From contig JBFWJS010000004.1 of NCBI GenBank assembly GCA_050253075.1, positions 213,685 to 277,684 on the forward strand: DNA of 64,000 nt. The letters are read 5' to 3'. The stretch is from Deferribacterales bacterium. Its GTDB lineage: Bacteria > Chrysiogenota > Deferribacteres > Deferribacterales > Geovibrionaceae. How positions within the stretch are numbered: the stretch's first letter is position 1; every line of letters begins with the position of its first letter. Below, piece after piece: positions 26,082 to 63,292 of the stretch. The notes beneath the pieces are model-generated. The model was not told where the DNA came from and searched no databases. It worked only from the letters and a program-made list of their open reading frames with translations. Made by a program: the position numbers and the translations under genes.

Positions 26082-29000
26082 ATGATCCGCAAAAGAAACA
26101 ATCTTAAGATAAGACTTATCGTTAAGATAACATCCCTGATAGCCGTCACCACAATACTTATGATCGCTATCACCGGGGTGGTAACATATTATAAATTTGA
26201 CTCTCAGGTAAGAACCAACCTGGAGTATGTTCAGTCTGACATCCTGCAGGATGTTGAGAACAGAGTGCAGTACCTCATGGAGACTGCGCACAATTTCAGC
26301 AATAACAATCTCGTCGTCAGCGGCGTTATAGACGAAAAGCACCGCACTATGTATCTGCCGAAGATGCTGAACGAGCTCTCCTCAAACATGGGGATAGCAT
26401 TCGCCGTCATATACGACTTCGCAGGGAACCCCATAGCAGACAGCAACTCTGTCGTCACCAGCATATTCGAAGAGAAAGACGTGCGCTACACCCTCATAAA
26501 CGGCTCCACCCACATCGCATATAACAGAGGCTACATACTGGTTTACAACCCTGTGATGTTTTACAACACGCCTCAGGCTGTGACAGCTATCGCAGTGGAC
26601 CTTAAGACCATCTTTTACCGTATGTGCAGCCACACCAGAAACACATCGATCAGCCTCTTTCTGAATAATGAAGAGATAGCAAACTTCGGATATACAGAGG
26701 GGAAGACATACCGTGTCGGCGAGATAAAGCGTTACAAAGAGCTGACGGCTCTCTACAACCTTAACATAGGCATAAGATACAGCCCGACCATAGAGATGTT
26801 CTTCAGACCTGTGACAGAGGTTCTCCTTCCGCTCCTTCTGATCGGTACACTTTTCATATTTGTCGCTGTCATGGCGGGGCTTAAGCTCGCACGTGACATA
26901 TCCGAGCCTATATTGGAGCTGGTGAACAGAGTGAACGCCATAGCACCGGGAGAGAAATCAAACTGCGCACCTCTGGGCACAGACGACGAACTCGAAGTGC
27001 TGGCATACGCATTCGACGAAAAAACGGAAGAGCTGACAAACGCTCAGGCGATGCTGAAGGCATACTCTGACGAACTGCGGGTGTCAAACACCGAGCTGGA
27101 AAAGCGTGTAAACGAAAGGACAGAAGAGCTCGTACACGCCAAAGAGCGTGCAGAAGCGGCGAATGTTATGAAGAGCCAGTTCCTCGCAAACATGAGCCAC
27201 GAAATACGCACGCCGATGAACGCCATACTAGGCTTCAATCAGCTCCTGTCGAAAACAGACCCGAATGAGAAACAGCTCGAGTATGTAAACAAAACATATC
27301 AGGCAGCACACCACCTCCTCGGGATCATAAACGACATTCTGGATATTACAAAGATAGAGTCAGGAATGATGACCATCGAAAAGACCACATTCCACCTCTT
27401 TGACATGCTGAACAACGTGAAGCAGATCATAAAACCGAAGGCCGATGAAAAAGGCCTTACATTTAACATGTATTTTCAGACGGACATGCCCGCACACTAT
27501 GCGGGAGACCCGCTCCGCATAGGACAGATACTCATAAACCTGATAACAAACGCAGTGAAATTCACCGACAGCGGAAGCGTAACCGTGAACCTCTCTGCGG
27601 AGAATCAGGATGAAGATACCGTAATGCTCCGCTTCGCCATAATAGACTCCGGCATAGGTATGAGCAGGAAAACGGTAGATAAGCTGTTCAAGCCTTTCCA
27701 GCAGGCCGAGAGCTCCACAGCGAGGAAATACGGCGGCACAGGGCTCGGGCTTTCCATCAGCAGACAGCTCGCAAAGCTGATGGGCGGTTCAATATCCGTT
27801 GAGAGCACCGAGGGGAAAGGGAGTACATTCACCCTTACTATCCCGCTGGAACACGTGCTGAGAGAAGACCGCACAGACATGCTCCACTTCCCTAATACAA
27901 AAGTGCTGGCTGTCGGATTCAATAAAGAAAACGATAGTTTCATCAATTATATAAGCAGCCTTGTAGGCACAATGGACGTATGCTGCGATACTGAGAGCGG
28001 ATGCGGATATGTGGATGCCATAATGGCGAGAGACTCCCACTATAACCTTGTCTTTGTAAACGACCTGAACGATGTAACGGAACACGCCCTGCAAAAGCTG
28101 GAAAAGATGACCGGCAGGTTCGGCAGGATATATGTCGCCCTCATGAAAAGACCTGAGAATCTGGAAGAGATCGAAAGCAGCTACCCTTCCATAATATTCA
28201 ACGTAGTATCGCCTCAGATGGAGACATCAGAGATACTGAACCTCATATACAACAGCTCGTCAGAGATAACAAAGATAGCCCCTGAGCTGGTTATAAAGAC
28301 CGCTCCGGATATGCTGACGATGGACAAGCGCATACTTGTGGTCGAGGATAACGAGGTAAACAGGCAGATACTTCAGGAACTGCTGAAACATGCGGGCATT
28401 TCATCCAAAGCGCTGAACAACGGCGCAGAGGCCGTGGAGCATCTTTCCGACCCGGATAATGCAAGGAAATACAGCCTCGTCTTCATGGATATACAGATGC
28501 CTGTAATGGACGGATATCAGGCAGCAGACGCCCTTATGAGACTGCCTCACATGAAGGCTCTGCCGATAGTTGCGCTCACGGCCGACGCTGTGGACGAAAG
28601 CCTGAAAAGAGCCAAAGAAGTGGGCATGACCGGCTATATAACAAAGCCTTATTCCCTTAATAAGATACTCGAGGCAATCGGCAAATGGTCTAAGATAAAA
28701 GTTGTCTACCATGAAGCAGATAAGCAAACATCCGAAGATAATTCAGCCATATACGGCATAGATAAAAAGAAATGGTTCGACTCATACGCAGAGGATGAAG
28801 AGCTCTTCAACGAGGCTCTCCATATATTCTCTGAACACAGCTGTCAGGACACACGGCACGCTCTGGATCTCATCATAGAAGGCAAGCTGGATGAAGCCAG
28901 AAGGAAGACGCACAGCTTTGTCGGTGCAGCGGGTGCATGCTGTCTCACAGACGGATATATAATGGTGAAGGAACTGGACAACGACCTCACAAACGGCTCC

Positions 29001-59493: not shown

Positions 59494-59622
59494 ATGAAGA
59501 AATTATTGGCTATAGCTCTCATAGCGGTTTTCACCCTTACCATAGCAGGGTGTGCGGGTAAAGCAACAGCGCCAGGTCAGATAAAGAAGACGACAGGGAC
59601 AAACCCCAAAGCTAAAAAGTAA
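59494..59622 (+). CDS. Small 42-aa basic lipoprotein
   Basis: GGAGGT RBS; MKKLLAIALIAVFTLTIAGCAGKATAPGQIKKTTGTNPKAKK; lipobox IAGC. Below the ORF-track length cutoff. Confidence 0.8.
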   Translation: MKKLLAIALIAVFTLTIAGCAGKATAPGQIKKTTGTNPKAKK

Positions 59623-59663: not shown

Positions 59664-59697
59664 AATAGCCCTTGCAAAATTTAAAGCAGGGGCTATT
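59664..59697 (+). terminator. Hairpin after the lipoprotein gene, overlapping the putative promoter of the metY leader
   Basis: AATAGCCCTTGC...GCAGGGGCTATT stem containing TTGCAA...TATTAT. Confidence 0.5.
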
Positions 59698-59720
59698 ATC
59701 CTCTGAAAGGCATAATTAAA

Positions 59721-59828
59721 ATGATAGCATTAAACAGTAACTCAAACTACAGCCTGAACGCTTCCCAAGCTACAGCATGTGCTATCGCTATGTCTATGTC
59801 CATGATGATGCAGCTCCTCGCTGCATAA
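59721..59828 (+). CDS. Putative Met/Cys-rich regulatory leader peptide of metY (35 aa)
   Basis: MIALNSNSNYSLNASQATACAIAMSMSMMMQLLAA; AAAGG RBS; 5 ATG in 7 codons; ends 98 nt upstream of metY. Confidence 0.7.
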   Translation: MIALNSNSNYSLNASQATACAIAMSMSMMMQLLAA

Positions 59829-59926
59829 TTATATAACCCCCAACAATACAATCTATCTTTGGCTTTAATCTCTGAATTGCAGGGATTGTTATAACCTATT
59901 TTATTTACAATATTGGAGAATTTATT

Positions 59927-61267: not shown

Positions 61268-61468
61268 ATATATTTAAATTGCATATTTCTCTATATTTTA
61301 CCCACATTGCAAATTCCTATTAACAAAGTCGTTTTTTTCTTATTTGTAAAAATTCGCAAGTTAACTATACTTTTTTTGTCTGAATAGTTTGTAAATATTG
61401 TAAAGATGTGTGTATAGTTACATAATTAGGAAACAAACGTGTAGATGATTAATTTAGGAGGCCCGTGT

Positions 61469-63292
61469 ATGTTAAAGAACCTAAAAATATCGCAGAAGCT
61501 CTATCTAGGCTTTACTGTGATCCTTTTCCTTATGATCTTAATAGCCCTTATCAGTTTTCTTCGAATGGAGAGTATTTCATCCCAAGTTAACAAAAGAGAC
61601 ATGCTTGCCAAGATCGTAGAGCACATCAACAGTGCCAGAGTGAACCGTATACAGTTCTTTTACACTTCGAACGAGCAGTACAGCAAGATGACAGAGGATG
61701 ATTTCAAACAGATACTCGTCATTACTGCAGAAGGTAAAAAACAGTATAACGACAAAGAAGATATCGCAATTTTCAACAGCATCGAAACAGATGTCAGAAA
61801 GTATCAGGATATTTTTGCCAAATACTCCGACGCTATCAAAAAGAACTCAGAGATTTACAAAGCCCTGAGCGGATACGGTGCAGAAATGGCCGCAGCAGCA
61901 GGCGATGTGAAGACACAATCCTTCACATTCAACTTCTTTTCTATGCGTCTGAGCGCAATGAAGTACCTTTATCAGCCAACTTAAAAAGAGTATGAGACAA
62001 CACAGGGATTTTATCAGAAAGCCTACTCTGATGCACAGGCGGCAGGTGCTGCAGACCTTATGAATAAACTGCAGACTTACAGCAAAGGCTTCTCTGATAT
62101 GCATGACAGCAAAAACTCGCTGAAGGCTATTGAGGATGATCTCGCTGTCTCAGCCAGAAAAGCACAGGATCTCTGCAGTGAGATTATCGTCGCTGAGAGA
62201 AAACAGCTCGAAAGCACCGTCGCAGGGGCAAAGTTTATAACAGTTCTGATATCCCTCATAGCCGTTATCGCAGGTATTCTCACATCTATCCTTATAGCAA
62301 GGTCTATCACAGGGCCGATGGAAAAGGCCGTTCAGCTCTCTGTCACTATGGCAGAAGGCGACTTCACACTTTCAGTGGATAACGACCGCAAGGACGAGAT
62401 AGGCAAGTTCCTCTGCGCTATGGAGACAATGCGCATAAAGCTAAGGGAAGTTATTGAAACTATCATCCAGTCCTCAAACTCTGTGGCATCGGGGAGTACC
62501 GAGCTAGCCTCTACTACGGAAGAGCTCGCCACCACATTCTCCGATCAGGCAGGGCAGGTCAGCATGGTCGCCAGCGCTACAGAAGAGCTTAGTGTCTCTT
62601 CCACACAAATACTGGAAGCCATCAACGAAGTTAAGCATAAATCTGATACAGGGCATGACCTTACCATAGAGGGGCAAAAGCTCATCCAGCTTACAAACGA
62701 TGCCATGCACAGCATCAGAGCAAATGTCGAAGACCTCGGCACCACAATAGGCTCACTTGCACAATCCTCTGAAGAGATCGGCAATATACTTCTAGTTATA
62801 AACGATATCGCAGACCAGACAAACCTTCTCGCACTTAACGCTGCCATCGAAGCGGCAAGAGCAGGCGAGCACGGACGCGGTTTCGCCGTTGTCGCAGACG
62901 AGGTCAGAAAGCTCGCCGAACGCACACAGACATCCATCCACGATATCGAAAAAATCATATCTTCCTTTGTTACAGAAACCACGAAGACGAATCAGGGGAT
63001 GAAGTCAGCAAAGGATAAGGTTATCGACGGCGAAGATAAACTCTTCAAAACAGACGAGATATTCAATAAGATTGTTATCGCAGTGGAAGAGATCACCCAA
63101 TCCAGCGACCTTATGAAGACAGCCATATCCGAACAGGTAGCCGCCATAGCGAATATTAACGATAACGCACACGTTATCTCAGGCGGTCTGGAGGAGAGCT
63201 CTGCTGCTATTTCACAAGTTTCTGTGACAGTCAGCGACCTTCAGAAACAGGCCGACGACCAGATGCAGATAACCGAACAATTCAAGATCTAA
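61469..63292 (+). pseudogene. Methyl-accepting chemotaxis protein interrupted by an in-frame TAA (61982-61984)
   Basis: ORFs 61445-61984 and 62060-63292 share a frame, and the 25 codons between them are open ([25 protein letters not shown]). TM1 and sensor lie upstream; TM2, HAMP and signalling domain downstream. Confidence 0.85.

Follow-up and report, generated by a model that had tools for sequence, protein, structure and literature searches.

The metY gene of the window (the whole stretch analysed here, 64,000 nucleotides of a Deferribacterales genome) is preceded by a short open reading frame (ORF) that appears to be the remnant of an internally deleted rrf2 repressor gene and is now likely a methionine-sensing leader peptide, acting in the source genome probably via Rho-dependent termination. 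We assign to this reading as a whole a probability of about 0.6. What is distinctive and new is that the probable origin of the leader from a repressor gene is still visible. Close relatives keep both the before state (repressor and operator) and the after state (a leader and neither of these), with the same promoter and with recognizable homology. The locus would therefore allow one to test directly whether control passed from a protein to the ribosome and, with it, from a signal that was likely of cysteine type to methionine.

Organization of the locus

The features discussed below are the following.

59672..59699 (+), predicted sigma-70-type promoter (-35 TTGCAA, -10 TATTAT), homologous to the promoter of the relatives' rrf2-metY operon, without the ATCAY-N7-RTGAT operator
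59706..59710 (+), weak Shine-Dalgarno-like AAAGG at the position of the rrf2 gene's ribosome-binding site, 10 nt before the leader ATG
59721..59828 (+), leader ORF of 35 codons, probably what an internal deletion left of an rrf2 gene
59790..59810 (+), Met/Ser block MSMSMMM, predicted to do the sensing, with its last Met aligned to Met106/107 of the Rrf2 protein
59808..59826 (+), hairpin 1, 7 bp, from the last Met codon to the stop, predicted at the same place in 4/4 leaders and inside 7/7 rrf2 genes of the family, with differing stem sequences
59824..59860 (+), G-free C/A-rich tract of 37 nt, candidate Rho utilization (rut) site, aligned with the rrf2 codons for NYLxNTTL
59866..59888 (about) (+), hairpin 2, lacking a U-tract, a candidate for pausing, with the observed natural variants in its loop
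59915..59918 (+), metY Shine-Dalgarno sequence (SD) GGAG, with no predicted pairing to the leader in the source genome
59927..61213 (+), metY, O-acetylhomoserine/O-acetylserine sulfhydrylase family, second paralog, TIGR01326 over cut-off

The ORF, its five Met codons and the hairpin at its stop were described in an initial annotation of this DNA, and all of them are present where it put them. The ATG codons lie at 59790, 59796, 59802, 59805 and 59808, with Ser codons (TCT/TCC) interleaved. The 997 upstream regions of the source genome contain 2416 small ORFs (a background built on a crude gene set from an in-house ORF caller), and just one of these, the metY leader, has at least four Met within seven codons; the runners-up have three Met. 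The ribosome-binding site ascribed to the ORF exists as well, although it is weak. The Cys codon that was said to precede the Met run is there, yet it lies four codons 5' of the first Met, at 59778, and is private to the source genome. As it is absent from the three orthologous leaders considered below, the leader is classed as Met/Ser, cysteine sensing is rejected, and the role once proposed for the codon is not supported. Extra copies of the leader were sought by DNA search of the 16 family genomes, which returned just the ortholog in G009 and two look-alikes; both of the latter are antisense within a long ORF and were discarded as chance matches.

The promoter, also proposed from the outset, is predicted upstream of the ORF, and the promoters can be aligned across relatives. 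In metagenomic run X21, from a related species, both hexamer-like elements are kept and the spacer differs. The putative substrate of the metY product, going by its TIGR01326 family, is O-acetylhomoserine or O-acetylserine. The source genome has another metY paralog, ~51% identical, which is controlled by the genome's only SAM-I (S-box) riboswitch and is followed by a gene that we take to be metX-like from its N-terminus; a SAM-I riboswitch is present at 6/6 metY-paralog loci scanned. At the leader, by contrast, this riboswitch is absent. The Rfam scan that had been suggested gave no family at gathering score in the leader, and the four leader loci known to us have no SAM riboswitch or T-box match, so that the early impression of no SAM-I or T-box signature holds and a riboswitch or known RNA family is ruled out.

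Relation to the rrf2 gene

Among 16 genomes of the family, 11 have this metY ortholog (68-100% identity). A Met/Ser leader is found at four of these loci, namely in the source genome (G000) and G001, both of genus g1, and in G009 and G012 of genus g4. The other seven carry at the leader's position an Rrf2 gene encoding 140-141 aa. The promoter and ribosome-binding site of rrf2 align with those of the leader, and the start codon is 23-27 nt from the -10 element in 11/11 loci. An Rrf2 ortholog (57-100% identity) occurs in exactly the seven rrf2-type genomes and in none of the four leader genomes, which are 99% or more complete and in which the best matches are paralogs of 30-38% identity.

The two types of locus differ also in a palindrome, ATCAY-N7-RTGAT, which lies over the promoter at 7/7 rrf2 loci and 0/4 leader loci; the pattern was derived from these same promoters and, being too short for genome-wide use, was applied by position alone. 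Outside the family, exact or one-mismatch copies stand ~495-527 nt before metY at 13 rrf2 loci, and at six cysK loci none was found before the gene (0/6). The palindrome is a candidate operator for a CymR-like Rrf2 regulator that has not been described before. Genus g4 has another copy directly before metY, and in family f5 the site is kept at metY though rrf2 is located elsewhere. Beside metY, these f5 relatives have neither an rrf2 gene nor a Met-rich ORF. Since, of 27 additional loci in other families, 13 have rrf2 directly before metY, the arrangement is taken to be ancestral. One of the genomes has two rrf2-metY copies (G028:C5 and G028:C9, loci L120 and L127), the second metY with an internal TAA.

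Local alignment of the leaders with the 3' end of the family rrf2 genes gives z values of at least 4 in 19/28 comparisons, against 0/52 for out-of-family rrf2; the source genome leader and the G003 rrf2 gene show no significant alignment (z -0.7). The G009 and G012 leaders end in MHGFRA and the stop codon where Rrf2 reads MHGLRAV, and G012 still has the last codons of rrf2. Because the 3' half of the leader aligns with the 3' coding end of the repressor gene, in which the hairpin was already there, the leader is likely what remained, and was put to new use, when a repressor gene suffered an internal deletion, and we consider its derivation from rrf2 very probable. On this route the DNA-binding domain would have been lost by a deletion within the gene, a stop would have arisen past the hairpin, and Met codons would have been added upstream of the former Met106/107; Rrf2 carries two Met in the aligned stretch and the leaders 3-5.

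It is important to point out that hairpin 1 has a counterpart within the intact genes. In the 7/7 family rrf2 genes its predicted energy is -9.4 to -12.2 kcal/mol, the stems differing between three lineages, while the best window in the matching region of out-of-family rrf2 is -7.0 or weaker in 12/13 tested. When the genes are recoded synonymously with the codon usage of the source genome, the observed energy is reached in 22-47 of 1000 trials for 5/7 genes tested, which makes the hairpin stronger than expected from recoding. The hairpin comes after codons C-M-x-x-x-Y-M. Stalling there within an intact rrf2 would expose, not mask, the downstream RNA.

The ancestral Rrf2 is putatively CymR-like, judging by its C-terminal Ile and its context. 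The family proteins score over the Rrf2 superfamily cut-off and below that of the NCBIfam CymR equivalog (74-78 bits vs 195). A C-terminal Ile ends 13/13 out-of-family Rrf2 proteins and the five family proteins inspected, and in CymR this motif is described as the CysK-binding type (PMC12895370). The resemblance to the CymR-CysK system of Bacillus subtilis (PMC12895370, PMC6522883) thus comprises the final Ile, the place beside metY (in G003 with cysK after metY) and the palindrome over the promoter. Unlike CymR, the ancestral protein stays at 78 bits at best against the equivalog cut-off; in the source genome it is gone, its tail surviving in the leader.

Number of origins

In a metY tree and a paralog tree, the leaders branch from among rrf2-bearing species as two lineages, and a topology that keeps the four leader-linked MetY together is rejected (p-AU 0.0006, from a quick tree). 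The g4 leaders retain the g4 rrf2 hairpin sequence. Of 55 nt, that of G012 has 42-43 in common with four g4 rrf2 genes, 37 with the fifth g4 rrf2 gene and 34 with the source genome leader. The source genome leader for its part strongly resembles that of G009 (z 12), has the same style of ribosome-binding site and shows a weak grouping with the g4 leaders. In the tree of leader DNA, neither a single leader clade (p 0.47) nor a clade by genus (p 0.27) can be rejected. Two origins, or a single origin with transfer of the leader alone, both accord with these results.

One can speculate further that the repressor gene was converted twice, independently, into a Met-sensing leader attenuator, its 3' coding end already having a selected module of Cys/Met codons, hairpin and C-rich tract, and that the outputs then diverged into Rho termination in one genus and SD sequestration in the other. 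We offer this as a tentative scenario, possible but on balance not the one we would expect.

Conservation of the leader

Conserved Met-rich upstream ORFs before metY orthologs were the first check proposed for the leader, and they are indeed seen, as orthologous leaders in three other species. The four leaders have 28-36 codons with 3-5 internal Met interleaved with Ser (just three, scattered, in G001), and in 4/4 the reading frame of the Met codons is that of the old start codon. Each leader has a hairpin that opens with its last Met codon and at or within which the ORF stops; downstream come 33-46 nt free of G.

Over codons 1-20, G009 and G012 differ at 27 of 60 nt, with no stop or frameshift, compared with 2 of 51 nt, both synonymous, over codons 21-37 (Fisher p 3e-7), and the C-terminal 16 residues of the peptide are identical. 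Between the two lineages the peptide shows no conservation beyond Met/Ser. Run X21 differs from the source genome at 33 of 604 nt, and 28 of the differences could be placed: two in the 108-nt ORF, none in 59772-59829, eight in the 98-nt spacer and 18 in the first 371 nt of metY. Four runs of the same species contain one synonymous change in the leader ORF. Although the counts are small and the genomes kin (four species and one metagenomic relative, in two lineages), these comparisons indicate that the Met block is under strong constraint and that the 5' half drifts yet stays open.

In metagenomes, a pattern for this metY clade retrieved seven loci, one of them with a leader that is identical to that of G001 over the part shown. 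Among 80 matches listed for distant metY homologues, 78 had enough flank, and in none of these were there at least three Met in seven codons. A separate observation concerns locus L034, in a Cyclobacteriaceae record, where a 45-codon ORF lying 254-116 nt upstream of metY ends with Met and four Cys codons and is a candidate polycysteine leader.

RNA structure and predicted pairing

The leader as a whole folds no better than its shuffles (z -0.47), and just the part with the two hairpins folds better than its shuffles do (z -3.1). A terminator scan found no intrinsic terminator on the leader strand, and the tail of hairpin 2, initially called T-rich, is not a U-tract. A ribosome placed at codons 28-29 lowers the predicted probability of hairpin 2 from 0.97 to 0.55-0.68. 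The antiterminator pairing behind this change requires G59879, and this position is A in runs X5, X6 and X21. As it is the sole such pairing predicted, and the 59879 G>A variant breaks it, the combination of a hairpin 2 terminator with an antiterminator was rejected, and with it the downstream structural switch suggested for this hairpin. An antiterminator forming on stalling is predicted in the source genome alone, the other three leaders having no such switch. Without terminator and antiterminator, the source genome's leader is not a classical attenuator.

The C-rich, G-poor tract that had been likened to a rut site proves to be a real G-free run. A C-over-G excess of its size is, however, found in 14% of 857 upstream regions, which makes the tract alone weak evidence of a rut site, and being inherited from rrf2 codons it need not have been selected as one. 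It is clear in 3/4 leaders and weak in that of G009 (9 C, 7 G). A rho gene is present in the source genome.

For G009 and G012, folding predicts a pairing of the Ser-Ser-Met codons with the metY SD (10 bp, probabilities 0.85-1.0) and with the AUG (5 bp). The anti-SD duplex amounts to -19.0 kcal/mol in G009 and -16.7 kcal/mol in G012, values matched by 6 and 28, respectively, of 833 background ribosome-binding sites taken from the source genome. Opening the metY site costs 11.9 and 10.9 kcal/mol when the leader is ribosome-free, 5.9-7.6 kcal/mol with a ribosome on codons 23-31 (a relief of 3-6), and again 10.2-12.6 kcal/mol with the ribosome at codons 35-37. For the source genome and G001, neither anti-SD pairing nor a switch was found; 677 and 795 of the 833 background sites, respectively, pair as well as theirs. 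The Met block of the source genome has -5.7 kcal/mol with its own site, weaker than the background mean of -8.2, and opening this site takes 3.7-5.5 kcal/mol at every ribosome position, the change being at most about 1.2. With the G009/G012 sites, which the source genome's site resembles, the same block reaches -11.0 kcal/mol. According to these predictions, no single output is common to the four leaders, anti-SD pairing being present in G009 and G012 and not in the source genome or G001.

Mechanism and alternatives

The idea of a Met-sensing leader peptide, with which the initial annotation began, gains support from the orthologous leaders in three species, the conserved Met/hairpin block, the upstream promoter, the lack of a riboswitch, the presence of rho and the classical-looking trp and aro attenuators elsewhere in the genome; its additions of a Cys role and a hairpin 2 switch do not. 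Neither the relation to rrf2 nor the SD-sequestering output predicted for two relatives formed part of that annotation. Sensing by ribosome stalling at the leader is, on this sequence evidence, likely. Rho as the output in the source genome is the best guess given that there is no intrinsic terminator and no pairing or switch at the ribosome-binding site and that rho is present, and we put it at even odds.

From translation onward, we infer the following course of events. A ribosome would start at the old rrf2 ribosome-binding site. With ample Met-tRNA it would finish and leave, hairpin 1 would re-form, and the C-rich leader (ORF and tract) would be open to Rho, which would end transcription before ribosomes protect metY. 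With scarce Met-tRNA, ribosomes would stall on the Met/Ser block and occupy the leader, and metY would be expressed. In G009 and G012 the same stall would free the metY SD and AUG from the 15-bp pairing with the Met/Ser codons.

It is important to note that a ribosome covers about 12 nt past the decoded codon according to PMC4833913, so that one stalled at the last Met would reach about 59822, short of the post-stop tract. Because the tract would thus stay bare, the Rho model needs a rut site that reaches into the C-rich ORF. A rut site extending into a translated upstream ORF has been proposed for toiL (PMC12121999).

The output could instead be translational here too, with the stall freeing the metY ribosome-binding site from a structure that the folding programs miss, and with Rho termination being just polarity. 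The strong pairing and ribosome-position switch predicted for G009 and G012, the predicted pairing of the source genome's Met block with their similar sites, and the precedents of Ms5788A (10.1101/834739) and toiL (PMC12121999) all speak for this; with the block pairing with its own site less well than background, and the opening cost of that site staying at 3.7-5.5 kcal/mol whatever the ribosome position, we find it unlikely. A classical attenuator is very improbable. Here a stall at Met codons 28-29 would release the 3' arm of hairpin 1, which would then form an antiterminator with hairpin 2, itself a weak intrinsic terminator, in keeping with the predicted drop in hairpin 2 probability and with the trp and aro attenuators of the same genome, but hairpin 2 lacks a U-tract, the A at 59879 in three runs removes the G that is needed, and the other three leaders have no such switch.

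The remaining two explanations do without tRNA sensing. The leader might be an inert or structural remnant of rrf2, metY being constitutive and the Met codons incidental or kept for RNA pairing or stability. That the promoter, ribosome-binding site, hairpin 1 and C-rich tract are all inherited from rrf2, and that the f5 relatives have metY with neither an adjacent rrf2 nor a Met-rich ORF, is consistent with this. What makes it improbable is the rise from two Met in Rrf2 to 3-5 in leaders that keep the old frame in 4/4 cases, a Met run unique in the genome, and a block that is strongly constrained while the 5' half drifts but stays open. TnaC and plant CGS1 are models for nascent-peptide arrest, and the leader peptide could likewise arrest the ribosome on binding SAM or Met. 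The 16 identical C-terminal residues in G009 and G012 would fit; the peptide is nevertheless not conserved between the two lineages beyond Met/Ser, and repeated codons for the end product of the pathway itself are what marks the sensing of tRNA starvation, which leaves arrest by a ligand hardly probable.

Relation to known systems

The preferred reading, an rrf2-derived leader that senses Met-tRNA shortage and acts in the source genome through Rho, has parallels in several directions; by analogy, the leader likely works most like the mycobacterial polycysteine leaders and Rho-linked upstream ORFs such as toiL. With the former (Ms5788A, the 'Cys ribulon'; 10.1101/834739) it shares a short ORF, a run of sulfur-amino-acid codons near the stop, sulfur-metabolism genes downstream and the lack of an intrinsic terminator. 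The pairing of the codon run with the downstream SD reported for Ms5788A is predicted here for G009 and G012 alone. Polycysteine leaders had been predicted earlier (PMC1262725), and the authors of the Ms5788A study present that leader as an alternative to a transcription factor (10.1101/834739). The metY leader differs in having Met and not Cys codons, in being leadered with an SD and not leaderless, in the missing SD pairing in the source genome, and in its likely origin from a repressor gene and not from a transcription start site.

Upstream ORFs of the toiL-topAI kind include also tnaC, speFL and mgtL. In toiL-topAI of E. coli (PMC12121999), ribosome occupancy of the upstream ORF governs Rho-dependent termination and/or access to the ribosome-binding site, as is predicted here, and the rut site may overlap the ORF. 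Unlike that system, the predicted signal is a shortage of Met-tRNA at Met codons and not antibiotics or ligand-induced arrest, and the Rho dependence is putative.

A short leader ORF that carries a run of pathway-product codons and ends in a hairpin is likewise seen in trpL, hisL, pheL, thrL, leuL and ilvL, from which the present leader departs in having neither a U-tract terminator nor a conserved antiterminator. Met genes, under the control of SAM riboswitches, T-boxes or repressors, are in textbooks the exception to leader-peptide attenuation. Met is not covered among the amino acids with classical leader attenuators in the parts of the literature consulted (PMC1262725, PMC11550727), and for the Met operons of Actinobacteria PMC1262725 states that no such structure was found. 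In searches of the open full-text literature, we came across no account of a Met leader-peptide attenuator or of a leader that stems from a regulator gene. PMC2965389 leaves it open whether leader peptides arise by transfer or emerge from random sequence, and the metY locus suggests a source from which such a leader can come.

Other elements

Two further leaders were noticed in the source genome, which have long stems with U-tracts, unlike the metY leader. At G000:C7, ~236-173 nt upstream of a trpE-like gene at 28232 (+), a leader ORF contains three consecutive Trp codons and precedes two strong stems that have U-tracts; the whole looks like a classical trp attenuator. At G000:C4, ~333-249 nt upstream of a DAHP-synthase-like gene at 143022 (+), there is a 27-codon, probably leaderless, Phe-rich ORF that also has Trp and Tyr, with a long stem and a U-tract, which makes up a candidate aromatic-amino-acid (aro) attenuator. 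A palindromic REP-like repeat is found in this aro leader and in the spacer between leader and metY in genus g4 (L010, L011); 47 copies in the source genome match a simple pattern for it.

The neighborhood of the metY locus contains two more items. At window positions 59494-59622 (+), between msrAB and the leader promoter, lies a 42-codon lipoprotein-like ORF that has a weak ExtJ match below the cut-off and was not seen at this place in G001. Downstream, at 61445-63292 (+), a methyl-accepting chemotaxis gene is split by an in-frame TAA at 61982-61984, either a nonsense mutation or an assembly error, with the sensory module before it and the HAMP and signalling domains after it.
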